Of a DNA stretch of 64,000 bases, positions 1,340 through 56,394 are shown piece by piece (the first letter of the stretch is position 1; every line of letters begins with the position of its first letter). The notes under the pieces were generated by a model. The model was not told the DNA's origin. It made no database searches and was given only the letters and a program-made list of their open reading frames with translations. This stretch comes from an uncultured Gemmatimonadales bacterium (GTDB lineage: Bacteria > Gemmatimonadota > Gemmatimonadetes > Gemmatimonadales > GWC2-71-9): assembly GCA_963779755.1 (NCBI GenBank), contig CAVZZO010000001.1, positions 672,001 to 736,000 on the forward strand, written 5' to 3'. A program made the translations under genes and the position numbers.

Positions 1340-1651
1340 GCCTGACGGCCTGCCCTCAGCGGCAGCAGCCTGATCGGTTCAACCAGCGAAGGCTGCCGCC
1401 CCGGCAGCTGGAAGCGCAGGTAGGGGGGGCTGAGCGCCCGCTGGGTTGCAGGGCCGACGAAGCCCAGGGTGGCGAGATCATACCCGGAAGCAACGGCGTG
1501 GCCGAACCTACGTGAACGGGGAACGTGCGGGCATAGGCAGACTTTTCGTCGGGGGTCATGGCGCGGCTCCGGGTGGAGGGAATCACAGGAGTCGCGGAAG
1601 GAGCTACGGGCCGCGCAGCGGCGTCAAGCGGGTATAGATGTCTAGTTAGGC
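1340..1651 (-). other. attC site interrupted by mini-IS110 element; R' degenerate (GTCAGGC)
   Basis: R'' GCCTAAC at 1645-1651; the rest (CTGCG CTTCCAGC...GCTGAGG...GTCAGGC) resumes at 1419-1340. Confidence 0.7.
1420..1644 (-). mobile_element. Non-autonomous ~225-bp IS110 derivative (MITE-like)
   Basis: 1507-1644 matches the left end of the IS110 at 14651-14788; ends in CCTAC like the full element. Confidence 0.75.
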
Positions 1652-4839: not shown

Positions 4840-4880
4840 GGCTAACGCAGATTGGACCTGCAGGAACCACGTCCCCCCCA
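4840..4880 (-). other. attI site of integron B
   Basis: GTTAGCC core; flank (attggacctgc...gaaatt.atctta...cacaacat) homologous to the attI region at 18718-18806. Confidence 0.75.
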
Positions 4881-6005: not shown

Positions 6006-6159
6006 GGGGGGAAATATAGGGTTTGTGTCGGTTCCTGTCCCGCTTAGGGCCGGAGAAAGAGCACGCCGTCATTGCGAGGGCGCGCAGCGCCCGTGGCAAT
6101 CCCACCGCTTCCGGCGGGGAGCTCCCCACCTCACCGCTTGCTCCTCACGCTCACCGCCG

Positions 6160-6940
6160 ACCTAACCCCCTGTCCCCCTTCCCTGTTGGGAAGGGGGGAC
6201 CGGGACGACCAGTTCGAAGAGAAGGGGGAACCGGGACGGCCGATGTAAAAGAGGCTGTCACCCTGAGGCCGCGCCAGCGGCTGAAGGGGCCGAAGCTGGA
6301 GGATGGCTTCGGTCCCTTCGCTGCGCTCAGGGTGACAACCCCCTGTCCCCCTTCCCTGTTGGAAAGGGGGGACCGGGACGGGCGGTGCGAAAGGGCTGTC
6401 ACCCTGAGGCCGCATCAGCGGCCGAAGGGGCCGAAGCTGGAGGATGGCTTCGGTCCCTTCGCTGCGCTCAGGGTGACCTAACCCCCTGTCCCCCTTCCCT
6501 GTTGGGAAGGGGGGACCGGGACGACCAGTTCGAAGAGAAGGGGGAACCGGGACGGCCGGTGTAAAAGAGGCTGTCACCCTGAGGCCGCACGTGCGGCCGA
6601 AGGGGCCGAAGCTGGAGGATGGCTTCGGTCCCTTCGCTGCGCTCAGGGTGACCTAACCCCCTGTCCCCCTTCCCTGTTGGGAAGGGGGAACCGGGACGGC
6701 CGGTGCGAAAGGGCTGTCACCCTGAGGCCGCATCAGCGGCCGAAGGGGCCGAAGCTGAAGGACGGTTTCGGTCCCTTCGCTGCGCTCAGGGTGACCTAAC
6801 CCCCTGTCCCCCTTCCCTGTTGGGAAGGGGGAACCGGGACGGCCGGTGTAAAAGAGGCTGTCACCCTGAGGCCGCACGTGCGGCCGAAGGGGCCGAAGTT
6901 GAAGGATGGTTTTCGGCCCCTTCGCTGCGCTCAGGGTGAC
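6160..6940. repeat. Tandem array of ~5 composite palindromic (REP-like) units, ~140-175 bp
   Basis: TGTCACCCTGAG...CTCAGGGTGAC alternating with CCCCTTCCCTGTTGGGAAGGGG hairpins. Confidence 0.9.
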
Positions 6941-6999
6941 ATTACGCGCGCCGCCGGCGCTCATTGCCCGGGCGCGAGAGACACCCAGCGCCGCGATCC

Positions 7000-8027: not shown

Positions 8028-8400
8028 GCTCAGGGTGACCTGACCCCCCTGTCGCCCCTTCCCTGTCGGGAAGGGGGAACCGGCGCCGGAAACCCCGTCG
8101 TCCCGAACCCCGCGAGCAACGCGAGCGGGTGAGGGACCTGATGCGCGTGTCTGGAGGGCCGGCCACAGCGTTCCGGGTGCCTTGCCTGGCGTCCGAAGCG
8201 CGTGAAGCATATCCCTCTCTCGCTGCGCTCGCTCGGGATGACAGGCGCCCTTGAGCCAAGGGAGGGAGCCGCCTTGCGGCGGGGGCCACGCTTCGCTTGT
8301 CACCCTGAGGCCGCGCAAGCGCCCGAAGGGGCCGATGCTGAAGGCATGATTTCGGCCCCTTCGCTGCGCTCAGGGTGACATTACGCGCGGGCGCCGGCGC
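8028..8400. repeat. Degenerate copies of the 6160-6940 REP-like units
   Basis: ctcagggtgacc, cccttccctgtcgggaagggg, gtcaccctgagg...ctcagggtgaca. Confidence 0.75.
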
Positions 8401-11306: not shown

Positions 11307-11410
11307 GCCTAACGAAATGCGTTTCAGCCGCGAAGGCGCGGCCCTAGCGCCCGGAGGGCTTTTTTGAGCGGGTGCGCCGCGCCTTCGCCGTCTGCAAACG
11401 CTTGTTAGGC
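11307..11410 (-). other. attC site (104 bp)
   Basis: GCCTAAC-AAGCG-TTTGCAGA...GCTGAAA-CGCATTTC-GTTAGGC. Confidence 0.9.
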
Positions 11411-11709
11411 CTCCCGGCCAGCCGGCTCCGGCGACGTTCGGTCTCGACCCGATCGGCAAGGTACACCTTGAGCAGACTCTGATAGGGGACATCCCGCTCG
11501 TTGGCGAGCAACTTGAGCTCGGTAAGCAGGGTATCGGGCAGCCGGACCGAAATGGCTGTGGACGAAGGCCGGAGATGGGGAAAGCGCATCACCCGTGCCT
11601 TCGACCAATCCACATATTCGGTCGAGTCATGCGTGGCCCAGAAGTCGCGCTCCTCGTCCTCAGTCCGGAAGGTCGGGATGTTCTTCAATGCTCGCTTGGG
11701 CTTGGGCAT
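11344..11709 (-). CDS. BrnA-like antitoxin (RHH/CopG), C-terminus reads into attC
   Basis: IPTFRTEDEERDFWATHDSTEY...AISVRLP...DVPYQSLLK. Confidence 0.88.
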   Translation of the reverse strand: MPKPKRALKNIPTFRTEDEERDFWATHDSTEYVDWSKARVMRFPHLRPSSTAISVRLPDTLLTELKLLANERDVPYQSLLKVYLADRVETERRRSRLAGRPNKRLQTAKARRTRSKKPSGR

Positions 11710-12013
11710 ACTGGTGCCGCTCCTTCCGATTCATGTCCCGGGCCGCGATCACGCGAATCAGAGATCCGCGCACCGTGAAGACGAGGTAGAGCCTCCGGTT
11801 CGCGAGGGTCCGGCCGAGCGCTTGCCACCGGAGCTCGGTGCCGGAGTGCTTCGCATCGAATGCGGCGACCAGAGGTTCCTGAAAGAACGCCTGTTCGCAC
11901 TCCCCCGGCTCCACGTTGTGGCGCGCCAGCACTTTGGGCGCGTTGCCGGCGTCCCATTCAAAGCCGGTGCAGCGGCCCAGAATCGCGTAGGCGTCCGGCG
12001 GCTCTCCCGTCAC
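11660..12013 (-). CDS. BrnT family toxin
   Basis: FEWDAGNAPK...H..ECEQAF...RWQALGRT...VFTVRG..IRVIAAR. Confidence 0.92.
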   Translation of the reverse strand: MTGEPPDAYAILGRCTGFEWDAGNAPKVLARHNVEPGECEQAFFQEPLVAAFDAKHSGTELRWQALGRTLANRRLYLVFTVRGSLIRVIAARDMNRKERHQYAQAQASIEEHPDLPD

Positions 12014-12019
12014 TCAGGA

Positions 12020-12048
12020 AGTATATGTGGGGTATATACGCCAGTCAA
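12020..12048 (-). promoter_or_regulatory. Sigma70 promoter of the BrnT/BrnA cassette
   Basis: TTGACT-17 bp-TATACT, 6 nt before the GTG (leaderless); GTATATAC palindrome in the spacer. Confidence 0.8.
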
Positions 12049-12071
12049 CCGGTAGGCTCCGCCATCCGGAG

Positions 12072-12203
12072 GCCTAACGAAGTGCGCGTCAGCTGCAGCG
12101 CGATGCTTTAGGTCTTCACAAACTACGCTTCCTTAGCCGCGCCGCTAGGAACTCCGGATGATGCGACCGGCCCGCGCGACTGGCCTGCCAGCTGGACGCG
12201 CTC
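12072..12203 (-). other. attC lacking its R'' box (R'' displaced to 14789-14795)
   Basis: GAGCG-CGTCCAGC...GCTGACG-CGCACTTC-GTTAGGC; homologous to the attC at 16001-16140. Confidence 0.85.
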
Positions 12204-12658
12204 ATGTACGCGGATCCTTTCGGGCTGCTTGCCCAGGATTGTTGTATCGAAACGGGGGATTGGCGAAAGGATAACCTGCTTCACCCTGCTGTTACAGCGG
12301 CAAGAGAGACAACCCGATGCTGGGAGTAGCTGTGGGTCTCCTGGCCGTTGCAGGTGGGGCCGAACTGGCTGCTCCCAGGTTATTTGCCGCGGCCACCGCT
12401 GCTCTTCCTAAGGTACCGTTTGAGAAATTCCAGGACTGGGGACGAAATGTTGTCCAATGGGGCCGTGGGGCAGCGGGGGCAATTCAGCGGGTTTCTGAAG
12501 TGACGGCCGAGCAGGCCTCTAAATTGGATCCACAGAAAGTGAAGATGGCTCGCGACTTCTACCAGAAAGCTGTTGATGCTGGCCGAGGGGGAGCCGCCGC
12601 ACCTGAACGAGTAAAGCTGATGGAACGCATTTTAGACCTGCAGCAGAGAACCCATTAG
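12204..12658 (+). CDS. Orphan Rhs C-terminal toxin tip (DUF4951-like), one apparent frameshift
   Basis: Starts MYADPFGL (Rhs DPxGL); removing 2 nt in the GA repeat at ~12305 joins ORF 12317-12658 (WGRG..GA..R...RDFY...ER..LM.RI). Confidence 0.65.
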
Positions 12659-12705
12659 TGGCTCGGTCCGGTCTATTCGAGCATTGCAACACGGAGGAAG
12701 AGCCA

Positions 12706-12953
12706 TGCTGGAAGCAGCGGTCACACTTCGGCTTACGAATAGATGCGAAACTGCGCGGAAGCTCGTGATTGAGCCATGGACCACCGAGTTTCGACTGCAA
12801 CCTGGGCACACTTACGACTTGGTGATATCAGGGGACCTTGGCCTCCCCTTAGAGGTTGAGTTCGAGGACGACGAACTAACCGTATACACTTTCGATTCCG
12901 CCAATGCCTCCTTCAAGATTTCCGAAGGCGGGGCTGAACTTAAACCACTGTAG
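12706..12953 (+). CDS. Putative immunity protein
   Basis: 82-aa acidic ORF directly after the toxin tip, GGAGG upstream; its stop codon lies in the IS end. Confidence 0.55.
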
Positions 12954-13437
12954 GAGCCCGGCCCTGTCTAGCCTGGGGCGCTCGGGGCGCCTCCGGGTTG
13001 TCGGGCCTGAACTCCGAGGGGTCGGGTCTAGTAGGAGCCTCGCGGGCTGCCGCGCGTGGCGGACCTCGGCCGGCGGAAAAGGAAAGTGGTGGGGGCCCCA
13101 CGAGTTCAGCGGAACCCATCGGCTCCAGACCTGCCGCGAGCCGGCTCCCTCGTCGGGCGTCATGCGCCCACGGGAGCAGACGGGGTCACCCCACCGGCTC
13201 CAAGGTGCTACCCGGTCCTTCGATTGTCAAAGAGCGCCGCGTTCCGCGTGCCGGCGGGATCCTGGCACCACCCTCATAGGTCGTTGAGGCTCGGGGCCTC
13301 CCACATCTTCATGGATGCTCTCCGATCCGCGGCCGGGCGGCCAGCAACTCTGTGCGCGGAACTCACCGAAGACGCCGGCGGCTCAAGGCAAATAGAGGGC
13401 GGCCCGGCGCGCACGCGCGGCTCCCCCCGGTCTCCGA
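12950..13437 (-). ncRNA. Putative bridge/seek RNA region (exact boundaries unknown)
   Basis: Non-coding end contains the donor-junction 14-mer (13026-13039) and candidate target guides (13277-13283, 13232-13237). Confidence 0.65.
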
Positions 13438-14703
13438 CTATTCGATCACCACCGGCTCTGCGTGATGCCGCTGGGTCTCCCAGCGCTCCCGGTCGAACGG
13501 CTGGCCCGACTGGAGCACGGCCAGGAGGAGCGGCACCAGCTTGCGGGCCACCGCGCAGACCGCCTTGGTCCGGAGCCCGCCATTGCGGGCCAGCAGGGCC
13601 TGGTAGACCCCGGTACAGCCCCCGGGGCTGGCACCAGCGGCCGCCGAGCAGAAAGAGTTGGCGGCGCAGCAACGGCCGGCCCCGTTTGGACTGCTTGCGC
13701 CGGCCCTGCACCGTGCCGCTGGAGCGCTCGACCAGATTCATGCCTGCGAGTTTCAGCACCTGGCGGGGATGAGTGAAGCGCTCCGGAGCGCCCAGCTCGG
13801 CCACGATCGTGGCCGCACAGGTGGCGCTCACCTCGGGAATGGTGGTCAGCGCCTTGGCCGCGGGGCACTGCTCCACCGAGCGCGGCGATCTGCTGGTCCA
13901 CCTCCGCGAGTTGCGCCCGCAGCAGGTCCCAGCGGGCCAGCAGCTGCTGGATCTCCAGCGCCGCTCGGGAGCGGCGCCGGCCAGGGCGACACTGGTGCGG
14001 GCGGACTCGCGCAGGACGTGGAGCTGCCCTGGGCTCACGTGGCCCCGCGAGACGGACCGCGCCAGGCGAGTCACCGCGGCCGGGGCGGCCGCCAGGAAGT
14101 CCTGCGGCAGCGGCCAGCGCGCCAGCAGGGCGCGCGGCGTGGGCTTGCGCACCTGCGAGAAGTGCGTCAGGAACTCGGGCCAGGCCAGGTCGAGCAGGCT
14201 CTGGAGACGGTTCTTGAACCGGGTTTCCTCGACGGTGAGCCGATGACGGTGGGTGGTGAGCAGCCGCAGCTCGAGATACGGGGGCTGCAGCGCCGGATAT
14301 CCCACGAAGATCCCCAGGCTCACCAGCTTGCAGATCTCGGCGGCATCCTTCGCGTCCGTCTTGTTGGGGCTGTTATCCTCCAGTTCCTTGGCCCGCTTGG
14401 TGTGGGCCGGCAGGATATTGACCAGCGCATAGCCGCGCGCCCGCAGGCACTCGGCAAACGTGAAGCCGTGATGGCCGGCGAACTCCAGCCCCACCAGCAT
14501 CTGGCCGGGCCGGATGCCGGGAAACCAGGCCGTCAACTGCGCGCGGCGGCCTCGAAGCCCGCGCGGCTCACCGGCACTCGGACCGGCTTCGTGCGGCGCC
14601 CATCGGGGCCCTGAGCAACCAGCACGTGGACCCGCTTCGCGGTATCCACGCCTACGTGAACGGGGAACGTGCGGGCATAGGCAGACTTTTCGTCGGGGGT
14701 CAT
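13438..14703 (-). CDS. IS110 family recombinase/transposase (about 4 apparent frameshifts)
   Basis: VGVDTAK, VGLEF, NKTDAKDA (DEDD); LTTIPEVS; LAGMNLVERSSG; SKRGRPLLR; AVARKL. Confidence 0.92.
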
Positions 14704-14789
14704 GGCGCGGCTCCGGGTGGAGGGAATCACAGGAGTCGCGGAAGGAGCTACGGGCCGCGCAGCGGCGTCAAGCGGGTATAGATGTCTAG

Positions 14790-15530
14790 TTAGGTAGCAC
14801 CACGAATCAGACGGCGGCCGTGAGGAGTGAGTTCCGCGTGTCTGACGCTCCCAATCTGGTAGTCCCCGGGACCTCCTGTGGTAATGATTCCGAGGTCTTT
14901 CAAGCCGCGCAAGATCAGATCAAGTCGCGCAACCGGGATGCCCGTCACCTCAAGCACCGTGGTCGTGTGAAGTCGGTACTGGTCTGGCGTCAGGGTGCGG
15001 AACTGGGCAAGTACCGCAGCCACCTCGGCGGCCGAGTCCACATCTGGGAGTAGCGACGGAGCAAGGGCGATGTATGTGCCAGGCACGAGGCGCGTTCGCG
15101 CGATTCCGACAGCGTGATTCAAGTCTGGATCAATACGAATGAAGCCGAAATCGCGAAGATCCTCCGCTGCCTCCAAGTACTCATGCGGCGAAACATCCAA
15201 ATCGGTAATGGCATCCTCTGCTTCAGCAAACTGGAACAGCTGGCTGGCCTCGCGATAGAGGCAGTAGGCCAGCAACCGCAGGGGCGTACCAGAAAGGCGG
15301 ACGAATGGAACTTGAATTGCTTCGAGCGCGGTCACGCGCTCTTCGAGACTGCCAACCCGGACACCGAGTTTCGATACCTGCTCATTCGCTACGCCGTAGC
15401 CGCCCAGGGCGGCAAGACGCGCTACCAAGGACGCCACGCCCGAAATCGGCTCGACAACCAAGGCCACGCCAGTGAGTGTCCACGCAGCGATGGTCGGCCA
15501 ATCGAGGCTCGAATCCTTTGCTGAGGTCAT
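14790..15530 (-). CDS. Hypothetical protein (hydrophobic N-terminus, possible winged-helix domains)
   Basis: MTSAKDSS... 246 aa, GAGG RBS, stop inside R'' ACCTAAC. Confidence 0.8.
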   Translation of the reverse strand: MTSAKDSSLDWPTIAAWTLTGVALVVEPISGVASLVARLAALGGYGVANEQVSKLGVRVGSLEERVTALEAIQVPFVRLSGTPLRLLAYCLYREASQLFQFAEAEDAITDLDVSPHEYLEAAEDLRDFGFIRIDPDLNHAVGIARTRLVPGTYIALAPSLLPDVDSAAEVAAVLAQFRTLTPDQYRLHTTTVLEVTGIPVARLDLILRGLKDLGIITTGGPGDYQIGSVRHAELTPHGRRLIRGAT

Positions 15531-15545
15531 CCCGCCTCGTAGTGC

Positions 15546-15685
15546 TACTAACGAAGTGCGTTTCAGCGGCGGCGCGATGCCCCGCTCCCTCACATCCGAC
15601 GCTTCCTTACCGCGACCGCTAGATGTCCCAGAAATGCACCAGCGGGCTGCAGCACCGTGCCCGCCGCTGCAAACGCTTGTTAGCT
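15546..15685 (-). other. attC site (140 bp)
   Basis: AGCTAAC-AAGCG-TTTGCAGC...GCTGAAA-CGCACTTC-GTTAGTA. Confidence 0.9.
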
Positions 15686-16000
15686 GCCGGCCGCAATGAC
15701 AATTTCGGGTGCGATGACGCTGCCGGTATGTGCGGAGCCCCCGCGCCGGGAGACCGGGCCGCCAACCGGGAGCCTCGGCGGGGCGGGAGAACGCTGGACG
15801 CCTCCGAACCTGCTCGGCGCACCTTCCTTGCCATGGAGCGCCCCGCGGAGAGAAACCTTGGGCGGCATCGCGGAGCCTTCCAGGCGTCCCGCGCAAGGAG
15901 GCCGGTGCCGCCTCACCGCTACCAACCAACTGCAGAGTTCCGGCGGCACCACCAGGCGCCCACCAAGAGATCAGCACTGGGCGGCCCGACTGGCGCGTGC
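15686..16000 (-). other. Gene-less cassette body, diverged copy
   Basis: Homologous to 17950-18262 with frame-breaking indels. Confidence 0.75.
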
Positions 16001-16140
16001 AGCTAACGAAGTGCGCGTGTGCTGCAGCGCGATCCCTCAGGATTTCACAAACCTACGCTTCCACAGCCGCACCGCTAGGAGGCCCGAGTGGGGGCCGGCG
16101 GCCCGCGCGACCGGCCTGCAGAACGACGCGCTTGTTAGGC
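16001..16140 (-). other. attC site (140 bp)
   Basis: GCCTAAC-AAGCG-CGTCG...CGCACTTC-GTTAGCT. Confidence 0.85.
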
Positions 16141-17228
16141 CCCGCGGATTCATATACTAAGTGCAACAACGGAAGGCGACGAAAGCGGTGATCTGACAGC
16201 AAGTAGACTTCTCTGTCCGCCAAGACAAGGAAGCCGACCATGAACTACCGCCAGATCACCGCCGCTGAACGGTACACCCTCGGCCTGCTTCGCCGACAGG
16301 GGCTGACGGCGGCAGCCATCGCGCGCCTCCTCGGTCGCCACCGCAGCACCATCGGCCGCGAGGTCCGGCGCAACCGCACCCACCACGACGGGGGCTACCG
16401 CCCCCAGCTCGCCGACTGGTACGCGCGGGGCCGGCGGAGCCACTCGCGCCGCAACACCCGGTTCACCGCCACGGATTGGGCGGAGGTGGAACGCCTGGTG
16501 CGCGAGGACTGGAGCCCCGAACAGATCGCCGGCCGCCTCGCCGCGGACGGACACCTCGCCATCAGTCACGAGACGATCTATCGGTACGTCTGGGCGGACC
16601 GCGCGGACGGCGGCACGCTCTACCAGCACCTCCGCGGCGCCCGCAAGCAGCGCCGCAAACGGTACGGGCGCTACGACAGCCGGGGCCGCCTGGCCGGGAA
16701 GCGGATGATCACGGAGCGGCCTGCGATCATCGAAGGCCGCAGCCAGGTCGGTCACTGGGAAGGCGACACCGTCCTCGGCGCGGGACAGGCCGGCCCCTGC
16801 GTGCTGACGCTGGTGGAACGGAAGACCGGCTATCTGATGCTCGGCCAACTCCACCAGCGGACGACCACCGCCGTCACGCGCCGGGCGACCCAGCTGATTC
16901 ATCGGGAAGCTCGCCCGGTGCGCACCATCACCGTGGACAACGGCACCGAGTTCCATGACTACGCGGCGATCGAACGGGAGACCGCCACGCGCTTCTACTT
17001 CGCCACGCCGCACCACAGCTGGGAGCGCGGAACCAACGAGAACACCAACGGCCTGCTGCGGCAGTACCTCCCGAAAGGCCACTCTATGGCGCACCTCACC
17101 CAGGCCGCGTGTGATCGCCTCGCCCGCAAACTCAACCGCCGACCCCGGAAGCGCCTCCTCTACCGCACCCCGGAGGAATGCTATGCACGATGAGGCTCAG
17201 TGTTGCACTACAAACTTGATATCAGACG
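16141..17228 (+). mobile_element. IS30 family insertion sequence
   Basis: Imperfect IRs ...TCATATACTAAGTGCAACA / TCAAGTTTGTAGTGCAACA; GC (or GGC) direct repeat. Confidence 0.88.
16240..17193 (+). CDS. IS30 family transposase
   Basis: WSPEQIAG, ISHETIY, GHWEGD, TVDNGTEF, WERGTNENTNGLLRQYLPKG. Confidence 0.97.
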   Translation: MNYRQITAAERYTLGLLRRQGLTAAAIARLLGRHRSTIGREVRRNRTHHDGGYRPQLADWYARGRRSHSRRNTRFTATDWAEVERLVREDWSPEQIAGRLAADGHLAISHETIYRYVWADRADGGTLYQHLRGARKQRRKRYGRYDSRGRLAGKRMITERPAIIEGRSQVGHWEGDTVLGAGQAGPCVLTLVERKTGYLMLGQLHQRTTTAVTRRATQLIHREARPVRTITVDNGTEFHDYAAIERETATRFYFATPHHSWERGTNENTNGLLRQYLPKGHSMAHLTQAACDRLARKLNRRPRKRLLYRTPEECYAR

Positions 17229-17807: not shown

Positions 17808-17949
17808 GCCTAACGGTCTGCGTTTCAGCGGCGGCGCGATGCCCCGCTCCCTCATAATCCTACGCTTCCTTACCGCGACCGCTAGATGTCCGAGCAATGC
17901 ACCAGCGGCCTGCAGCACCGTGCCCGGCCGCTGCAAACGCTTGTTAGCT
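17808..17949 (-). other. attC site (142 bp)
   Basis: AGCTAAC-AAGCG-TTTGCAGC...GCTGAAA-CGCAGACC-GTTAGGC. Confidence 0.92.
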
Positions 17950-18723
17950 GCCGGCCGCAATGACATTCTCGGTTGCGATGACGCTGCCGGCAGGTGCGGA
18001 GTCCCCACCCCGGGAGGCCCGGCCGCCCCCTCGGAGCTCCGGCGGGGCGGAAGATCGCTGGACGCTTGTCCACCGGGAACGACGCTGACCCTGCCCCGAC
18101 CGCCCCGCGGGGAGGGGCCCCGGGCGGCATGGCGGAGCCTGCCAGACGACCCGCGCAAGGAGGCCGGTGCCGCCTCACCTCCGCCAACCAGCTGAGGAAC
18201 TCCGGCGGCACCACCAGGAGCCCACCAAAAGATCAGCACTGGGAGGCCCGGCTGGCGCGTGCAGCTAACGGTCTGCGTTTCAGCGGCGGCGCGATGCCCC
18301 GCTCCCTCATAATCCTACGCTTCCTTACCGCGACCGCTAGATGTCCGAGCAATGCACCAGCGGCCTGCAGCACCGTGCCCGGCCGCTGCAAACGCTTGTT
18401 AGCTGCCGGCCGCAATGACATTCTCGGTTGCGATGACGCTGCCGGCAGGTGCGGAGTCCCCACCCCGGGAGGCCCGGCCGCCCCCTCGGAGCTCCGGCGG
18501 GGCGGAAGATCGCTGGACGCTTGTCCACCGGGAACGACGCTGACCCTGCCCCGACCGCCCCGCGGGGAGGGGCCCCGGGCGGCATGGCGGAGCCTGCCAG
18601 ACGACCCGCGCAAGGAGGCCGGTGCCGCCTCACCTCCGCCAACCAGCTGAGGAACTCCGGCGGCACCACCAGGAGCCCACCAAAAGATCAGCACTGGGAG
18701 GCCCGGCTGGCGCGTGCAGCTAA
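17814..18723 (-). repeat. Two tandem, apparently identical 455-bp gene-less cassettes
   Basis: Period 455 (17808 vs 18263); no credible ORF. Confidence 0.9.
18263..18404 (-). other. attC site (142 bp)
   Basis: Same as 17808-17949; R' GTTAGCT. Confidence 0.92.
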
Positions 18724-18760
18724 CAAATATTGGACCTGCGTACCTCCCATTGAACTCCCG
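18718..18760 (-). other. attI site of integron A
   Basis: CAGGTCCAATATTT-GTTAGCT; cassette homology stops at the GTT; no attC hairpin upstream. Confidence 0.8.
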
Positions 18761-18806: not shown

Positions 18807-19784
18807 TCACCCCGTCTGGCCCAGCAGGTCCGCGGGACTCCGTACCCCCAGGCCGCCCCGGTTCAGGACATGGGTGTAGATCATCGTGGTCGAGACATCC
18901 CGGTGGCCCAGGAGCTCCTGTACGGTCCGGATGTCGTAGCCCGCCTCCAGCAGATGCGTGGCAAAGCTGTGCCGCAGGGTGTGACAGGTCGCCCGTTTGC
19001 CGATACCGCTGGCCCGCACCGCCTCCGCCATGGCCCGCTGCACTGCGGTCTCGTGGTAGTGATGCCGGCGCAGCTGCCCCGAGGCCGCGTGACGATGCCG
19101 CCGCCGAGCCGGAAAAACCCACTGCCAGGGCCAGGAGCATCCCGCTCGCGGATACTTCCGCTCCAGGCCATCGGGGAGCTCGACCCAGCCCGCCCCCTCA
19201 GCCAGATCCCGCCGGTGCCGCTCCCGCACCCGCTCCAGGTGGAGATGCAACGGCTGACGCACCGACTGCGCCAGGACGGTGACCCGATCCTTGGCGCCTT
19301 TGCCTCGGCGCAGCCGTATCTCCCCCCGTTCCAGGTCCAGATCCTTGACCCGCAAGGTGAGGCACTCAAGCAGCCGCAGGCCACTGCCATAGAGCAGGGC
19401 GGCTACCAGCGCCGAGACGCCACGCAGGTGTGCCAGTACGCTCCGGACTTCTCCCGGCGTCAGCACGACCGGCAGGCGCACCGGAGCCTTCGGCCGGGGA
19501 ATGCTCCCCATGTCCACCAATGGCCGCTCCAGGACCTCGGAGAAAAGGAACGAGAGGGCCGCCTGCGCCTGCGCCTGAGTTGAGGCGGAAACGTGCCGCT
19601 CGATGCGCAGATCGGCCAGGAATTGGAGTACTTCTTCCCGCCCCAGTTCCGCCGGAGGACGGAGGCCGTGAAACCGCACAAACCGCCGAACCCAGCCCAC
19701 GTAGGCCTCCTCGGTCCGCGGGCTGAAGTGCCGTAGCCGCAGGTTGAGCCGCAGGGCCTGCAGCAGTTTCGGTTTGGACTGCAT
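18807..19784 (-). CDS. intI: Integron integrase
   Basis: [16 protein letters not shown], IntI-specific [14 protein letters not shown]...[29 protein letters not shown]. Confidence 0.97.
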
Positions 19785-19892
19785 GAGAGTATCCCCGCGG
19801 AAATCCACAAGCTTGATCCGCGACGCCTTTCCACCCGTACCCCGCCAATGCCGAGAGGACCGAAAACGCCCGCGAACTCCTCCCTTGTGTAT

Positions 19893-19918
19893 CGAACAGT
19901 TGTTTTATACGTTTGTTC
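19893..19918. promoter_or_regulatory. Two putative LexA boxes (GAAC-N4-GTTC type) over the intI promoter
   Basis: CGAACAGTTGTTT and ATACGTTTGTTC overlapping a minus-strand TATAAA. Confidence 0.55.
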
Positions 19919-20891: not shown

Positions 20892-21882
20892 GCGCCATAG
20901 ACGTCCAGAGCATCACCCGGAAGTTCGGCGACTTCACCGCGGTGGACGCGCATCTCCTTCGAGGTGGAGGAGGGCGAGATCTTCGGCCTCCTGGGCCCCA
21001 ACGGGGCGGGGAAGAGCACGCTGATCCGCATGCTCACCACCCTGCTCAAGCCCACCGCCGGCACCGCGGTGGTGGGCGGGTACGACGTGGTGCGCGAGGC
21101 CGACAAGGTGCGGCGGGTGATCGGGGTGATCCCCCAGGCGCTCACCAGCGATCTCGACCTGTCGGTGGAAGAGAACCTGCTCATCTTCGCCAAGCTCTAC
21201 GGCGTGCCGCGCTCGACGCGGAAGGACCTGATCGCCCGGCTGCTGGAGGCGGTGGAGCTGTCGAAATGGGCCGACAAGCCGGTGAAGAACCTCTCCGGCG
21301 GCATGCGGCGCCGGGTGGAGATCGCCCGCGGGCTGGTGCACCAGCCGCGCATCCTCTTCCTGGACGAGCCCACCACCGGGCTGGACCCGGTCTCCCGCAC
21401 CGCCGTCTGGGAGATGCTGCGCGAAGATCAAGGCGGAGCACGACCTCACGGTGCTGCTCACCACCCACTACATGGACGAGGCCGACCGGCTGTGCGACCG
21501 GGTGGCCATCGTGGACCACGGGCAGCTGCTGGCGCTGGACTCGCCCATCCACCTGAAGGCGGCGATCCCGGGCGAGAACACGCTGGACGTGAGCTTCGAG
21601 CAGCCGCCCGCCGGCTGGGCCGAGCGACTGCGGAGCCTGCCCGGGGTGGAGAGCGTGGACGGGGAGGGAGCGGTCTACCGCATCCTTTCCGGCAACGGCC
21701 CCGCCACCACCACGGCTCTCCTGGGCCTGGCCGCCGGGCAGGGCGTCGCCATCCGGTCGCTGGGCGTGCAGAGCACCACGCTGGACGATGTGTTCGTGCA
21801 CTACACCGGTCACGAGCTGCGGGACGAGCTGGTGGAGGCCTCGGCGCTGGACCGGAGCGTCATCGCCTCGCGGAGGCGCTGA
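20888..21882 (+). CDS. ABC transporter ATP-binding protein (frameshifted)
   Basis: GPNGAGKST, LSGGM, LFLDEPT, LTTHYMDEA. Confidence 0.92.
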
Positions 21883-37136: not shown

Positions 37137-38940
37137 TGATCCACAGATTACGCTGCGGACCCTGACGGCAGCCCTGGTACCTGACGGCCGGCGCAGGTCC
37201 GTTTGTGATCCGCAGATTGCGCAGATTGCGCAGATTTTGCTCCAATGCTTGCAGCACTCCGCAGAGCGTTGCCGGGCGACGTACAACGAACAACTGGTTC
37301 TTCTTTTTGTGGGTGCCTGGGCCGGCATCGGAGCACGGCCCGCGCCGGGAACCATCTGCGTAATCTGCGTAATCTGTGGATCAACAATTCGGATCTGTCC
37401 CGATCACCGAGCCCGAGGGACCGGCTGTGGAGCCCTGCCGGCAGGTGCCTGGGCCGGCATCGGAGCACGGCCCGCGCCGGGAACCATCTGCGTAATCTGC
37501 GGATCAACAATTCGGATCTGTCCCGATCACCGAGCCCGAGGGACCGGCTGTGGAGCCCTGCCGGCAGCCTTGGCACAGGGGGGTCAGCGCAGGTCCGTTT
37601 ATGTGATCCGCAGATTGCGCAGATTACGCAGATTTTGTTCCAATGCTTGCAGCACTCCGCAGAGCGTTGCCGGGCGACGTACAACGAACAACCGGTTCTT
37701 CTTTTTGTGGGCGCCTGGGCCGGCATCGGAGCGCCACCCGGTCTGGGAAGCCATCCGTGTAATCTGTGTAATCTGTGGATCAACAATTCGGATCTGTCCC
37801 GATCACGGAGCCCGAGGGACCGGCTGTGGAGCCCTGCCGGCAGCCTTGGCACAGGGGGGTCAGCGCAGGTCCGTTTATGTGATCCGCAGATTACGCAGAT
37901 TACGCAGATTTTGTTCCAATGCTTGCAGCACTCCGCAGAGCGTTGCCGGGCGACGTACAACGAACAACCGGTTCTTCTTTTTGTGGGCGCCTGGGCCGGC
38001 ATCGGAGCGCCACCCGGTCTGGGAAGCCATCCGTGTAATCTGTGTAATCTGTGGATCAACAATTCGGATCTGTCCCGATCACGGAGCCCGAGGGACCGGC
38101 CGTGGAGCCCTGCCGGCAGCCCTGGTACAGCGGGGTCACCGCAGGTCCGTTGATGTGATCCGCAGATTACGCAGATTTTGTTCCAATGCTTGCAGCACTC
38201 CGCAGAGCGTTGCCGGGCGACGTACAACGAACAACCGGTTCTTCTTTTTGTGGGTGCCTGGGCTGCATCGGAGCGCCACCCGGTCAGGGAAGCGATCCGT
38301 GTAATCTGTGTAATCTGTGGATCAACAATTCGGATCTGTCCCGATCACGGAACTCGAGGGACCGGCCGTGGAGCCCTGCGGGCAGCCCTGGTACAGCGGG
38401 GTCACCGCAGGTCCGTTTATGTGATCCGCAGATTACGCAGATTGTGCTCCAATGCTTGCAGCACTCCGCAGAGCGTTGCCGGGCGACGTACAACGAACAA
38501 CCGGTTCTTCTTTTTGTGGGTGCCTGGGCTGCATCGGAGCGCCACCCGGTCAGGGAAGCGATCCGTGTAATCTGTGTAATCTGTGGATCAACAATTCGGA
38601 TCTGTCCCGATCACGGAACTCGAGGGACCGGCCGTGGAGCCCTGCGGGCAGCCCTGGTACAGGGGGGTCACCGCAGGTCCGTTTATGTGATCCGCAGATT
38701 ACGCAGATTACGCAGATTTTGCTCCAATGCTTGCAGCACTCCGCAGAGCGTTGCCGGGCGACGTACAACGAACAACCGGTTCTTCTTTTTGTGGGTGCCT
38801 GGGCTGCATCGGAGCGCGGCCCGGTCGTTGAATCAATCCTCGTAATCTGCGTAATCTGCGGTTGCACCACACACAACCGACCCTTTCACGGATCCGTGCG
38901 ACCGAGCTCGCGGAGCCGATCTGCGTAATCTGCGGATCAG
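37137..38940. repeat. Tandem array of ~266-276-bp units with ACGCAGATT inverted arms
   Basis: gtgatccgcagatt recurs at ~37205, 37603, 37879, 38155, 38421, 38688. Confidence 0.92.
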
Positions 38941-45017: not shown

Positions 45018-46456
45018 TCCACAGATTTCACAGATTGCGCAGATTGGCTCGGTGCGCTTGCGGCGCTTCGCCAAGGCCTGCCAGTATCCCCAGAAGAAAC
45101 TCGTTGTCTTTGTTGGGAGCGCAGGGCAACGCTCCATACGCCTGGTTCCCGGGCGTCGTGGCGCGGGGAAGGCTACCGGATCACGGGGGAACCGCAGATT
45201 ACGCAGATGTACGCAGATTTGGCTCCGTTCGCCTGCAGCGATCCGCCAAGCCTCGCCTCACGCCAACAAAACAGAAGATTCGTTGTTTGCTGGGAGCGCA
45301 GGCAAGGCTCCATGGAGCTGCGCCGACAGACGAGGCAATCTGCGTACATCTGCGTTCAATCTGCGTAATCTGTGTTCCCCCTCCGGGAACCCAGCCGTGC
45401 AAGGAGCCCGGGACGTAACCGACGCTTCGCCCTGGTTGGCCGACCTGGCCGATTGATTGAGACCGCAGATTACGCAGATTACGCAGATTTGGCTCCGTTC
45501 GCCTGCAGCGCTCCGCCAAGCCTCGCCTCACGCCAACAAAACAGAAGATTCGTTGTTTGCTGGGAGCGCGGGCAACGCTCCATGGAGCTGCGCCGGCAGA
45601 CGAGGCAATCTGCGTACATCTGCGTTCAATCTGCGTAATCTGTGTTCCCCCTCCGGGAACCCAGCCGTGCAAGGAGCCCGGGACGTAACCGACGCTTCGC
45701 CCTGGTTGGCCGACCTGGCCGATTGATTGAGTCCACAGATTTCACAGATTACGCAGTTTTGGCTCGGTTTGCCTGCAGCGATCCGCCAGGCCTCACCTCA
45801 CGCCAACAAAACAGAAGATTCGTTGTTTGCTGGGAGCGCAGGCAACGCCCCATGGAGCTGCGCCGGCAGACGAGGCAATCTGCGTACATCTGCGTTCAAT
45901 CTGCGTAATCTGTGTTCCCCCTCCGGGAACCCAGCCGTGCAAGGAGCCCGGGACGTAACCGACGCTTCGCCCTGGTTGGCCGACCTGGCCGATTGATTGA
46001 GTCCACAGATTTCACAGATTACGCAGTTTTGGCTCGGTTTGCCTCAAGCGATCCGCCAAGCCTCACCTCACGCCAACAAAACAGAAGATTCGTTGTTTGC
46101 TGGGAGCGCAGGCAACGCCCCATGGAGCTGCGCCGACAGACAGGGCAATCTGTGTACATCTGCGTTCAATCTGCGTAATCTGTGTTCCCCCTCCGGGAAC
46201 CCAGCCGTGCAAGGAGCCCGAGACGTAACCGACGCTTCGCCCTGGTTGGCCGACCTGGCCGATTGATTGAGTCCACAGATTTCACAGATTACGCAGTTTT
46301 GGCTCGGTTTGCCTGCAGCGATCCGCCAAGCCTCGCCTCACGCCAACAAAACAGAAGATTCGTTGTTTGCTGGGAGCGCAGGCAACGCCCCATGGAGCTG
46401 CGCCGGCAGACGAGGCAATCTGCGTACATCTGCGTTCAATCTGCGTAATCTGCGGT
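45018..46456. repeat. Tandem array of 270-bp units with ACGCAGATT inverted arms
   Basis: gattgattga at 45451, 45721, 45991, 46261. Confidence 0.95.
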
Positions 46457-46518
46457 TCCCTCTTGGTAGCCGCCGCGGCCCAAGGGCCCGAGGTCGCGAT
46501 GGCCCCGGCGCCCCGGGC

Positions 46519-47496
46519 TCAGTGGTCCTCTGGTGTCTCTTTCCTGGTGCCTGCCTCCTTCTTGCCGGCCGCCCTGGCGGGCCCTTCCCCGGCCGTCATG
46601 GACGTATCGGGGCCCTCTTTCGATATCAGGCGGCCGCCTCCCGCCATCCCCAGCAGCGACGGCACATTGAGCGAGTCGGCCAGGCCCGACGGCACCACCA
46701 TGAGCGAGCCCCGCTTGACGATACTCTCGTACAGCATGTTCATCGCCCGCAGCTGCATGGCGTCGGGGTGATTGCGGTAGGAGTCGGCCGCGTCCACGAA
46801 CTTGTGGGCGATTTCGGTCTCGGCGGTACCCAGGATGATGCGCGCCTGCCGTTCCCGTTCCGCCTGGGCCTGGCGGGACATGGCGTCTTCCAGCCCGGCG
46901 GGGATGATGACATCCCGGATCTCCACCGACTGCACCTGGATGCCCCAGGTCGCCATCTTCTCCTCCAGGGCCAGCTTGAGCCCGTGGCCCAGCTCGACCC
47001 GCGACTGGATCAGCTCCGCCAGGTCGTGCTTGCCGATGGCGTCCCGCAGCTGCGTCTGCGCCGAGAGGATGACCGCCTCGTCGTAGTCCTGTACCTCCAG
47101 GGCGGCGCGCTCGGCGTCTCGGACGATCCAGAACGCAATGGCATCCACGTTCACCGGCACCGTGTCGCGGGTGAGGCACGATTCGGCTCCGAACGCGGCG
47201 GTCCGGATCCGCTGGTCGATGGTGTAGGCCACCCGGTCCAGGATGGGGATGATGACGAAGTAGCCGGGCCCGCGGAGGCCCCGGTAACTGCCCAGCCGCA
47301 GGAGGACGGCCTTCTCCCACTGGTCGGTGTACTTGATGGCGGAGGCGATCAGCACCCCCAGCGCCAGGCCGGCCAGGCCGGCCAGCGGCGGCGCCACGCC
47401 GGCAAGGAACAGCGCGCCGGCCAGACCGGCCCCGACGATCAGCCCTGCTGAGAGCGCGGCGAAGGAGTATCGCGTGTCATTCGGCCTGTGTCTCAT
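46519..47496 (-). CDS. SPFH/band 7 (stomatin-like) protein
   Basis: WEKAVLLRLG, LTRDTVPVNVDA, AQTQLRDAIG, QAQAERERQA. Confidence 0.93.
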   Translation of the reverse strand: MRHRPNDTRYSFAALSAGLIVGAGLAGALFLAGVAPPLAGLAGLALGVLIASAIKYTDQWEKAVLLRLGSYRGLRGPGYFVIIPILDRVAYTIDQRIRTAAFGAESCLTRDTVPVNVDAIAFWIVRDAERAALEVQDYDEAVILSAQTQLRDAIGKHDLAELIQSRVELGHGLKLALEEKMATWGIQVQSVEIRDVIIPAGLEDAMSRQAQAERERQARIILGTAETEIAHKFVDAADSYRNHPDAMQLRAMNMLYESIVKRGSLMVVPSGLADSLNVPSLLGMAGGGRLISKEGPDTSMTAGEGPARAAGKKEAGTRKETPEDH

Positions 47497-53656: not shown

Positions 53657-53819
53657 GGATTCCTGACGGGGACTCTAGGGATGCCGCGAAGCCCGACTGC
53701 GGTCATCCAAGACTTATTAAGAGAGATTAAAGGTTTCAGGAAGGCGCGATGAAGGCTCCTTAAAGCCGCAGATTCGCTCCGCCGATGAACGCCGTGCTAC
53801 CAGTCGGCGGTCCGGCGGT

Positions 53820-54600
53820 GAAACCTGACGGCGGCCCTGGTACAGCGCGGTTGGCTCAGGTCAGTTTATGGAACCGCAGATTACACAGATTACACAGATT
53901 ACGCAGATTGGCTCCGATGCCTGCGGCGCACTCCATGGCGCGTTGCCGGGCGACTCATAGAAAACATTCTGTTCACTTTTTTGGTGGGTGACTGGGTTGG
54001 ATCGGCGTGCCACCCGGGTCTGCGTAATCTGCGGCTACCTCAACGGATCCGTCCTGCTCGCCATGGTCGGCGGACCGGTTGTGGATCCTGACGGCGGCCC
54101 TGGTACAGCGCGGTTGGCTCAGGTCAGTTTATGGAACCGCAGATTACACAGATTACGCAGATTGGCTCCGATGCCTGCGGCGCACTCCATGGCGCGTTGC
54201 CGGGCGACTCATAGAAAACATTCTGTTCTCTTTTTTGGTGGGTGACTGGATTGGATCGGCGCGCGGCCCGGGTCTGCGTAATCTGCGGTTACCTCAACGG
54301 ATCCGTCCTGCTCGCCATGGTCGGCGGACCGGTTGTGGATCCTGACGGCGGCCTTGGTACAGCGCGGTTGGCTCAGGTCAGTTTATGGAACCGCAGATTA
54401 CACAGATTACACAGATTACGCAGATTGGCTCCGATGCCTGCGGCGCACTCCATGGCGCGTTGCCGGGCCGCCACAAAGAACAAGTGTTCTCTCTTTCTTC
54501 TGGGTGAGCGGGGCTAGGATCGGCGCGCCGCCCGCGGCGGAAGTAATCTGCGTACATCTGCGTAATCTGCGGCTAACTCAATCGATCCGTCCTGCTGGCC
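53820..54600. repeat. Three ~255-265-bp tandem ACGCAGATT-type units
   Basis: ggctcaggtcagtttatggaaccgcagatt at ~53853, 54116, 54370. Confidence 0.92.
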
Positions 54601-54839
54601 GGGGTCCGCCGACCGGCTGCGGACCCCGCCGGGACGCTGGGATCCATGCGATCCCGTGCCGGGCCCACCCTGCTCCTGCCGGCCGTCAGCGCCTCCGTCG
54701 GGAATACGGTGAGGCCGACGCCGATCTAGAAGGGGAGAGGAGGCGATATCCCCCAGAAGCGGGCTAGAAGCCAAGGAAAAGCCAAGGGGCCGGAGACGGC
54801 CGCTGTGGACTTTCTTTTCCCCCAACTAAAGGAGCGAGG

Positions 54840-55349
54840 ATGCGCGTCAGCGATCTTGAACGCCTGTACGACTATCACTACTGGGCCAACCGGCGATTGC
54901 TCGGAGCTGTCTCCTGGCTTACGCCGGAGCAATTCACCCGGTCCATCGCCGGCAGTTACGGCTCGATTCGGAATACCCTGGTCCACATTCTGAGCGCCGA
55001 GTGGGGCTGGCTCGATCGGTGTGGCGGCCACCAACGGGGCGAGCGGTTGAATCCGCGGGATTACGCGACCGTCGAAGCGGTTGCCCAGGCCTGGGCCCGG
55101 GTGGAGGGGCACGTCCGGAGCTTCCTGTCCGGCCTCGAGGATGAGGACCTGACACGCAGTATCGAATTCACCATCGGCGGTGGCCCTGAACAGTCGGCTC
55201 CGCTGGGGGATCTGCTGCAGCACGCGGCGGTGCACGCGGTGCATCATCGGGGACAAGTGGCTCTGCTGTTGCGCGTCCTGGGCTATGTGCCTGGCAATTT
55301 CGACCTGCTCCTGTACGTCGGCGAGGAACGCGACGCACCTGCCCTCTGA
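54840..55349 (+). CDS. DinB family protein
   Basis: YHYWANRRLL, SIRNTLVHI, HAVHHRGQ. Confidence 0.93.
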   Translation: MRVSDLERLYDYHYWANRRLLGAVSWLTPEQFTRSIAGSYGSIRNTLVHILSAEWGWLDRCGGHQRGERLNPRDYATVEAVAQAWARVEGHVRSFLSGLEDEDLTRSIEFTIGGGPEQSAPLGDLLQHAAVHAVHHRGQVALLLRVLGYVPGNFDLLLYVGEERDAPAL

Positions 55350-55394
55350 TTTTCAGGCGAATCATGGAGACTAGCGGACCCGCTGTAGACACTG

Positions 55395-56300
55395 CCGGCG
55401 GCCCTGGTACAGCGCGGTTGGCTCAGATCAGTTTATGGAACCGCAGATTACACAGATTACGCAGATTGGCTCCGATGCCTGCGGCACTCCCCGGAGCGTT
55501 GCCCGGGTGACTCATAGAAACTTGTGTTCCTGTTTCGGTGGGTGACTGGATTGGATCGGCGCGCCGCCCGGGCCGGAGGTAATCTGCGTACATCTGCGTA
55601 ATCTGCGGCCGCGGACCGGTTGTGGATCCTGACGGCAACCTTGGTGCTGACGGTTGGCCCAGGTCCGTTTAGTGATCCACAGATTACACAGATTACGCAG
55701 ATTGACTCCGATGCCAGCGGCACTCCATGGCGCGTTGCCGGGCCGCCACAAAGAACAATTGTTCTCTCTTTTTTCTGGGTGAGCGGGGCTAGGATCGGCG
55801 CGCCGCCCGGGCCGGAGGTCATCTGCGTACATCTGCGTAATCTGCGGTTACCTGAACGGATCCGTCCTGCTCGCCATGGTCCGCGGACCGGTTGTGGATC
55901 CCGGCGGCGGCCCTGATACAGCGGGGTTGGCTCAGGTCCGTTTAGTGATCCACAGATTACGCAGATTACGCAGATTGACTCCGATGCCTGCGACACTCCG
56001 TGGAGCGTTGCCGGGCCGCCACAAAGAACAATTGTTCTCTCTTTTTTCTGGGTAGTCGGGGTTAGCATCGGCGCGCCGCCCGTGGCGGAAGTAATCTGCG
56101 TACATCTGCGTAATCTGCGGCTACCTCAGCCGATCCGTCCTGCTCTTTTCATGGTCCTCGGACCGGTCGTGGATCCTGACGGCAACCTTGGTACTGACGG
56201 TTGGCCCAGGTCCGTTTGGTGATCCACAGATTACACAGATTTACGCAGATTTTGCTCCCATGCCTGCAGCGCTCCGTGAAGCGTTGCCGGGCCGTCACAA
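55395..56300. repeat. ACGCAGATT-type tandem units (same subfamily as 53820-54600)
   Basis: About 3.5 units of ~240-270 bp. Confidence 0.9.
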
Positions 56301-56394
56301 AGGGCCGCATTCTTTTCTTTGTTGTTATTACCAGCAGTTGTTCTTCGCGTGTCTTCGCGCTCTTGGCGTCTTCGCGGTTTCATTCGTCCATGAC

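Follow-up and report, generated by a model that had tools for sequence, protein, structure and literature searches.

How can a toxin gene and its immunity gene come to lie inside an integron without being a gene cassette? The question arises from a 64,000-nucleotide stretch of the genome of an uncultured Gemmatimonadales bacterium (assembly GCA_963779755.1, contig CAVZZO010000001.1, positions 672,001 to 736,000; hereafter the window), in which one attC site of a chromosomal integron is split by 2,585 bp carrying the transposase gene of an IS110-family insertion sequence (IS) and, beyond it, genes for a putative Rhs toxin tip and its immunity protein. Here we argue, with a probability of roughly 0.8, that these 2,585 bp entered the attC site as a single insertion of an IS110-family, RNA-guided Rhs-tip shuttle unit and that the cargo belongs to the element.

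A split attC site in a chromosomal integron

The window has a G+C content of 67% and carries a chromosomal integron with its cassettes on the minus strand. The integrase gene intI (18810-19904, minus strand) encodes a member of the integron-integrase subfamily, as judged from a TIGR02249 score of 425 bits (cut-off 265), and matches Pfam Phage_integrase and Phage_int_SAM_4. It lies beside an array of attC-bounded cassettes that shares its strand and reaches from about 18724 to 1651 or beyond. The attC sites read 5'-R''...R'-3' on the minus strand, and clear hairpins were found at 16140-16001, 11410-11307, and 9495-9397.

One attC site of this array lies in two pieces. Its R'' (ACCTAAC, 14795-14789, minus strand) overlaps the stop codon of the open reading frame (ORF) 14790-15977, which belongs to a cassette body at 14789-16000 (minus strand) and matches no Pfam or NCBIfam family; the left end of the element follows directly. 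The rest of the site, comprising the spacer, L'', a variable loop, L', and R' (GTTAGGC, 12078-12072), occupies 12072-12203 on the minus strand. It lacks an R''. Its collinearity with an intact paralogous attC at 16001-16140 (minus strand) extends over the 5-nt spacer, L'', L', and R'; this intact site forms a canonical hairpin and is the best stand-in available for the empty site. An earlier interpretation made without database searches (the sequence-only reading) had claimed that the remainder of the attC resumes at 12203 in 5-nt-spacer register, and both the collinearity and the folding of the joined site bear this out. Folding the split site as it stands in the window showed that R-box pairing is lost. 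When the two halves were joined in silico, they formed a hairpin with R-box, spacer, and L-box at -28.4 kcal/mol, compared with -30.6 kcal/mol for the intact paralog. Removal of the 2,585 bp hence restores a canonical attC hairpin, and the insertion produced no target duplication beyond an ambiguous dinucleotide of at most 2 nt. The 5-nt register holds if one copy of the junction dinucleotide (TA at 14788-14787, GA at 12203-12202) is given to the attC. The position of the crossover carries an uncertainty of 2-3 nt; the insert measures 2,585 bp in either case.

The inserted unit and its cargo

On the minus strand, the inserted unit runs from its left end to a DPxGL leader (14788-12204 or 14786-12202, depending on where the crossover is placed). 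The non-coding left end (14704-14788, minus strand) reads GACATCTAT from 14786, a start also seen in relatives, and is followed by the transposase gene (13441-14703, minus strand; Pfam DEDD_Tnp_IS110, PF01548, E 9e-17, and Transposase_20, PF02371, E 6e-16). With a DEDD/RuvC-like N-terminal and a Transposase_20 C-terminal domain, the transposase belongs to the IS110 family. An intact relative, P0001 (422 aa, encoded on a 12.6-kb contig), is 98% identical to it, scores 197 bits against the NCBIfam model NF033542 'IS110 family RNA-guided transposase' (cut-off 140), and matches IS621 chains in the Protein Data Bank (E 2e-21).

The window's own transposase gene shows four frame breaks relative to P0001 (tblastn frames -2/-1/-2 and an internal compensated stretch), and its broken ORF reaches 123 bits on NF033542, under the cut-off. 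A non-mobile gene for an ATP-binding cassette (ABC) ATPase at approximately 20901-21880 (plus strand) also changes frame, near 21400-21550, its ABC_tran and DrrA-type C-terminal domains lying in different frames; the breaks in the element are thus possibly assembly indels and not decay. Either explanation may hold for the four breaks in the transposase gene and the one in the toxin gene described below, and the present mobility of the window copy is presumptive.

The window contains two copies of a 25-nt string from the left end (14788-14764 and 1644-1620), against 0.00 expected from shuffled sequences. The second copy marks another insertion of the element (1507-1651, minus strand), which consists of the first 138 nt of the left end (1644-1507) directly behind an R'' (GCCTAAC, 1651-1645); tblastn matched residues 1-21 of P0001 at 1559-1497. 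The adjacency of R'' and IS110 left end, already noted at 14789-14795 in the sequence-only reading, is therefore seen at two junctions in the window.

Non-coding DNA is distributed unevenly around the transposase gene, with 85 nt upstream versus about 480 nt downstream. The 3' non-coding region (12954-13440, minus strand; aligned with relatives in alignment A2) is the presumed guide-RNA gene. Relatives share homology with this region as far as about 12960, seven bases short of the stop codon of the convergent immunity ORF. The right end of the IS had previously been placed at 12950; we found that homology stops close to this position and that no recombination end is present there.

Beyond the non-coding region lie 746 bp of toxin/immunity DNA oriented opposite to the array, as had been reported before. 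An immunity-type gene (12705-12953, plus strand), convergent with the transposase gene, matches no Pfam family, and its product shows 42% identity over 77 aa (E 1e-23) to that of the ORF behind the toxin tip in a related locus, L031. The toxin tip itself (12204-12658, plus strand) comprises a DPFGL leader (12204-12329, frame 0, with the motif at 12213) and a DUF4951 domain (12317-12658, frame 2; E 5e-8, 33.3 bits, cut-off 27.3). Alignment with the L031 tip shows 53% identity over 108 aa, the two parts of the window tip lying in different frames owing to one frameshift. An Rhs core is missing upstream of the tip, and no rhs or RHS-repeat core was found anywhere in the window. Since both genes are homologous to the L031 pair, we regard them as cognate. 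The layout appears to be that of a polymorphic toxin, with a DPxGL core-end motif, then a variable toxin domain, then a cognate immunity gene downstream, and we interpret the cargo as a putative Rhs toxin tip and immunity pair.

The sequence-only reading had stated that it would be contradicted if, in relatives, the Rhs module turned out to be an independent cassette with a complete attC of its own. The Rhs module might be an ordinary cassette, or might have been placed by the integrase, with the IS landing beside it. Its location inside the array would suit this, and toxin/antitoxin cassettes are common there: the cassette directly downstream of the split attC (11307-12071, minus strand) encodes a BrnT toxin (11663-12013, BrnT_toxin E 3e-19) and a CopG/BrnA antitoxin (11347-11730, CopG_antitoxin E 4e-31) and has its own attC at 11410-11307. 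The Rhs module, however, has no attC of its own: none separates the immunity gene from the IS, and none is present at 12204. Its boundaries are element ends instead of the G/TT of an R' site, and its genes are antisense to the array. We therefore consider a cassette origin very improbable.

The element family in related genomes

A genome scan with an alignment of 57 proteins (A1) yielded 38 loci, numbered from L001; a scan with P0001 alone had given 189 pattern matches, none of which was confirmed. Homologues of the window transposase come nearly all from Gemmatimonadota metagenome-assembled genomes (MAGs). The right-hand module could be evaluated in 23 loci, namely 22 Gemmatimonadota-type relatives and the window. 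All 23 carry an antisense DP[FYSIL]GL motif 1,000-2,100 nt past the transposase stop codon, the matched motif in L005 being the upstream DPIGL of the Rhs core end and not the terminal one. The DNA between the non-coding region and this motif contains an ORF of immunity-gene size and a toxin tip of 138-183 aa, both antisense. The tips are nearly all unrelated to each other (4 related pairs among the 406 pairs of 29 tips); that of L020 is an HNH nuclease.

The surroundings of the units point to rhs genes as their usual home. In L001, L002, L011, L020, L025, and L033, the right-hand DPxGL is in frame with an upstream ORF of 850-1,700 aa; RHS_repeat was detected in all four long ORFs tested, and the four short ORFs tested gave no match. 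At the opposite end of the unit, a further antisense DPxGL leader stands immediately before the left end in 14 of the 25 loci in which the left flank could be evaluated, with a degenerate fifteenth case in L036; in three loci an attC R'' takes this place. The offset is constant at all junctions: GGATC, which corresponds to the Asp-Pro codons in reverse complement, is followed by nine variable bases, two further bases, and then the next part, which is an element left end (GACATCTAT or CACATCTAT), the reverse complement of an Rhs core end, or, in the window and L007, the attC spacer. From this fixed offset it follows that the unit has the left end as one boundary and the DPxGL leader of the tip it carries as the other. 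The distal cargo end had been described as unlike the donor end, which was the reason for keeping a two-step history in play; it corresponds to the conserved right end of the family, and that reason is gone.

Read in this way, the family anatomy consists of a left end, a transposase gene, a 3' non-coding region of about 0.5 kb, an antisense immunity gene, an antisense toxin tip, and a right end within the codons of the DPxGL leader. The DPxGL-coding end of rhs genes is, on the evidence of the flanks, the usual target, where the arriving tip is joined in frame to an Rhs core of 1,200-1,700 aa and the previous tip comes to lie behind the element; integron attC sites are used as well. Judged from the same comparison, the toxin/immunity cargo is a constant payload of the element family and not accidental flanking DNA. 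The earlier proposal that the recombinase had delivered flanking cargo into the integron holds as far as the single insertion is concerned, which recurs in L007 and L023, and fails with respect to the cargo, which is not flanking DNA but present in 23 of 23 loci.

Alternatively, a cargo-free IS could once have been mis-excised from an rhs locus via a pseudo-end and have taken neighbouring DNA into the integron. Precedents can be cited for such a capture: a 2026 preprint describes IS110-family loci with cargo and single-sided boundary matches (10.64898/2026.08.14.744561), and ISPpu9 makes several kinds of circles (PMC12288879). However, cargo-free members were found in none of the 23 loci whose sequence allowed the check, and the supposed pseudo-end is the conserved right end, present across clades with transposases 51-73% identical to the query. 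A one-off capture is hence unlikely.

The attC sites of two relatives contain further whole units. L007, a 5.8-kb contig labelled Chloroflexi, reads GCCTAAC, a 2,773-nt unit, and an attC remainder ending in GTTAGGC, behind which a toxin-antitoxin-like ORF was recognised by eye. L023, from a different clade (transposase 56% identical to the query), has its 2,861-nt unit between an R''-type heptamer and the remainder of an attC; the joined attC folds at -41.3 kcal/mol, another R' lies 250 nt upstream, and the insertion position is 3 nt further left than at the other R'' junctions. Together with the window, this amounts to four independent R'' junctions (two of them in the window) and three whole units in attC sites of three genomes, all in cassette orientation. 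As the same succession of R'', left end, DPxGL leader, and attC remainder arose independently in L007 and L023, the single insertion is by far the simplest reading of the window.

The recurrence also bears on the quality of the assembly. A chimeric join at a repeated IS would be conceivable in view of the two IS copies in the window, the indel-prone data suggested by frame breaks in the transposase, toxin, and ABC ATPase genes, and the contigs of L002, L004, and L005, which break at the left end. Against this, the order and orientation of the attC halves, 2.6 kb apart, are correct, and the assemblies of L007 and L023 independently arrived at this structure. An artefact of this kind is extremely improbable.

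In several relatives, tip/immunity modules are stacked. L032 contains at least five consecutive antisense modules between 5400 and 12600, with one element in the middle, which makes it well suited to working out the sequence of insertion events, and the tip stacks of L021, L024, and L032 look like repeated rounds of insertion at the rhs core end. Moreover, the right ends of the units at L017 10656, L019 5275, L029 2760, and L036 10655 abut another left-end-like sequence, GACCCCT followed by a pyrimidine-rich stretch, which suggests that elements of a second, related family are stacked in these rhs loci as well.

Guide-like segments in the non-coding region

If the units are RNA-guided, the non-coding region would be expected to contain segments that correspond to the element end and to the target. 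A candidate guide for the left end lies at 13302-13310 (minus strand), where GAAGATGTG is the reverse complement of the left-end start. This segment is conserved in 22 of the 26 elements listed, 115-262 nt past the transposase stop codon, and where the left end differs by one base, as it does in L007 and in L013, the segment carries the compensating base.

Downstream of the left-end segment lies a right-target module of 9-10 nt that is the reverse complement of the right target flank. We assessed the significance of guide matches by shuffle controls for each locus, with 500 shuffles each. Matches of 10 nt to the right flank were reached by 0/500 shuffles in L011, 2/500 in L012, and 13/500 in L023, whose flank is an attC and not an rhs site; matches of 9 nt were reached by 4/500 in L018, 7/500 in L027, and 10/500 in L031. 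The corresponding candidate in the window (12993-13001, minus strand) is ACAACCCGG, a segment of rhs type, which is mismatched to the window's own attC flank; a segment of this type matches the rhs flank in L002 exactly over 9 nt. In L032, a C-to-T variant is present both in the right-target segment and in the rhs sites of the same locus. A third module covers the left junction, i.e., the last bases of the left flank and the first three of the left end, with matches of 9 nt in L027 (1/500) and L011 (5/500) and of 8 nt in L023 (13/500). The candidate left-target guide of the window (13026-13035, minus strand) has 7 contiguous nt (ACTAGAC) in common with the R''/left-end junction. An exact k-mer search for guide/target pairs in the five closest elements gave scattered matches of 7-9 nt, none of them consistent. 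Overall, segments of the non-coding region correspond to the left end and the target flank and vary together with them. A guide RNA would be expected to show this pattern, and from it we infer probable RNA guidance.

The clade of L017, L018, L019, L023, and L036 is distinguished by the presence of both attC-type and rhs-type pairs of guide-like segments in all five elements. L023 sits in an attC that matches the first (attC-type) pair, and L018 in an rhs site that matches the second (rhs-type) pair. A tentative extension, to which we give somewhat less than even odds, is that the guide region encodes two target specificities: the DPxGL end of rhs, where the tip would be expressed as an in-frame fusion, and the integron attC, where the unit would be parked. 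Integrons and rhs loci would then be linked by one shuttle, and orphan stacks would stem from site-specific RNA-guided insertions and not from homologous recombination.

Points against the single insertion

Several results weigh against a single guided insertion in the window. The junction dinucleotides differ, TA on the left and GA on the right, so that no shared core is visible. No terminal or subterminal inverted repeat links the ends of the window unit; the best reverse-complement match to the first 60 nt of the left end within 12190-13445 is 11/13, internal, and near neither candidate right end. A lack of terminal repeats, together with site-specific insertion that leaves no target duplication, is in itself typical of the IS110 family. 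No Rfam family was detected in the element region at E up to 1, nor over the whole window at gathering scores. With respect to its own attC, the best matches of the window copy are 6 nt (reached by 415/500 shuffles) and 7 nt, the latter at the left junction and weak because 33/500 shuffles reach that length; the right-target segment belongs to the rhs type and finds no counterpart in the attC, and the matches of L007 are no better. We therefore rejected the view that the window insertion is fully guide-matched, none of its matches being significant. Either a weakly matching guide or a half-match event may have brought the window copy into its attC, a choice of site that we infer. Among the relatives, L016, L025, L032, and L001 gave no significant exact match, and 7 of the 25 left flanks are neither DPxGL nor recognisably attC. 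Lastly, no identical unit, i.e., the same IS with the same cargo, was found in two places, and one MAG (L021, L024, L025, and L028) holds similar IS copies with unrelated tips. Mobility of the whole unit consequently rests on the anatomy of the junctions.

Some of these observations are what a two-step history would leave behind, in which a plain 1.8-kb IS entered the attC and the 746-bp Rhs fragment came by a separate insertion, a deletion, or IS-IS recombination. The differing dinucleotides and the different tips carried by related IS copies in one genome would fit such a course, as would the end of the non-coding homology near 12960, just before the immunity stop codon. The second event would, however, have had to end exactly at the attC spacer, a coincidence that would be repeated in L007 and L023. 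In addition, the right-hand module is present in every evaluable locus, and the distal end lies at the fixed junction offset of the family. These findings make a two-step origin quite unlikely, and we retain the single insertion of a cargo-bearing unit.

Proposed cycle and relation to known systems

According to our model, which is drawn from the anatomy of the loci, the unit would leave as a circle in which the DPxGL-leader end is joined to the left end. The circle would recombine conservatively with the DPxGL-coding end of an rhs gene, so that the arriving tip is fused in frame with the Rhs core already present, and the matching immunity gene would come along. The old tip, now coreless, would be pushed behind the left end of the element, and repeated rounds would give rise to stacks of orphan tips. 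In the window, the same reaction would have inserted the complete unit, in cassette orientation, into a cassette attC, with R'' on one side and the spacer/L'' on the other. The site would thereby have been split, and the array would have gained a toxin/immunity pair that does not form a cassette.

To our knowledge, tip swapping in Rhs and other polymorphic toxins and the origin of orphan tip/immunity stacks have so far been without a defined mechanism, and a unit of recombinase and guide that ends in the conserved DPxGL codons would supply one. C-terminal displacement and orphan toxin-immunity modules of Rhs proteins were reportedly described by Poole in 2011, Koskiniemi in 2014, and Jackson in 2009. 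As in those modules, the tip/immunity stacks found here lie behind rhs, each starting at the DPxGL region, and the old tips are coreless. Whereas the known accounts of displacement invoke homologous recombination or leave the mechanism open, the module is here paired with the gene of an RNA-guided recombinase and has a fixed junction. For integrons, insertion of the unit would represent a second route by which genes are loaded into an array, with no cassette and at the cost of one attC, seen in three genomes. For bridge-RNA biology, the family would provide a natural, constant protein-coding cargo, an element end inside an ORF, and possibly two target specificities per guide region.

Elements of the IS1111-attC group (ISPa21, ISKpn4, ISPst6, and ISPa25) were reportedly characterised by Tetu and Holmes in 2008 and by Post and Hall in 2009. 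They have in common with the window element a DEDD-type transposase, a long non-coding region downstream of the gene, and orientation-specific insertion at a fixed position at one end of cassette attC sites, which for our family is represented by the four junctions in the window, L007, and L023. Tetu and Holmes reportedly also described an array with a truncated 'footprint' at its far end, similar to 1644-1507 in the window. Unlike this group, the window unit has a toxin/immunity cargo, its family targets mainly rhs, and subterminal inverted repeats are missing. A recent study shows that attC-targeting IS1111-type elements are known, attributes to the IS1111 subgroup subterminal inverted repeats of 11-13 bp with terminal extensions of 7 bp and 3 bp, and gives 46-86% identity among the ISKpn4, ISPst6, and ISPa25 transposases (PMC11187229). 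The window element thus lacks the inverted repeats of the IS1111 subgroup and possesses its longer downstream non-coding region. When P0001 was compared with 72,556 plasmids by tblastn, the best identity was 34%, and no Klebsiella or Pseudomonas was among the 25 best records; the transposase is thus remote from its plasmid-borne relatives.

Cargo as such is not foreign to IS110 elements. 'Expanded' IS110 loci bear cargo and may have only partial guide matches at their boundaries, as stated in the corresponding preprint, in the text of which Rhs, toxin, integron, and attC do not occur (bioRxiv 10.64898/2026.08.14.744561); experimental cargo has been placed inside ISEc11 (PMC11187229). As in the window family, an IS110-family recombinase there moves extra genes as part of the unit. 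The window family differs from the cargo-bearing IS110 loci in that its cargo class is constant, one end lies inside coding sequence, and insertion would give an in-frame protein fusion. Full-text literature searches returned no paper linking IS110/IS1111 elements, bridge RNA, or seekRNA with Rhs tips, and among the papers on RNA-guided recombination that were listed, the word Rhs occurred in none; a 2025 preprint reports only that transposases, IS110 included, are enriched near some polymorphic toxins.

The bridge-RNA system of IS621 has a homologous recombinase and, likewise, segments for the donor right, the target right, and the left side. Half-match recombination has been described for IS621 (10.64898/2026.08.31.748434), and insertion at a partly guide-matched site would fit the window copy. 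In contrast to IS621, the non-coding region of the window family is located 3' of the gene, and at least one clade seems to hold two target-type guide sets. ISPpu9, for which modular transposition and modular circles have been described (PMC12288879), resembles the window element as an IS110-family element with a separable downstream module. That module, however, is a small-RNA gene and not a protein-coding toxin tip, and no in-frame fusion results.

Further features of the window

Directly downstream of intI, a perfect 455-bp tandem duplication spans 17810-18724, such that the array begins with two identical cassettes (100% over both copies). The array also contains an intact IS30-family transposase gene (16207-17190, plus strand; NF033563, 293 bits), which is oriented against the cassettes and flanked by the attC at 16140 and the R' at 17814. 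Tandem repeats of 254-276 bp form arrays at 37204-38858, 45195-46589, and 53756-56302, with common 9-nt sub-repeats of the CAGATTACG type; a 36-nt core is scattered over the window in 24 copies, and no Rfam family matched these repeats.

The sequence upstream of the first R'-type GTTAGC beside intI (18724, minus strand) recurs upstream of the GTTAGC at 4846, the two sharing an 11-nt string as seen by eye. This could be a second attI-like site or the remnant of another integron. Finally, 6159-6950 contains five tandem units of 141-175 bp, and a solitary copy is present at 8298-8389. Each unit consists of a long G+C-rich hairpin and a GTTAGG/CCTAAC end, and the units may be ORF-less mini-cassettes or a family resembling repetitive extragenic palindromes (REP-like) inside the array.

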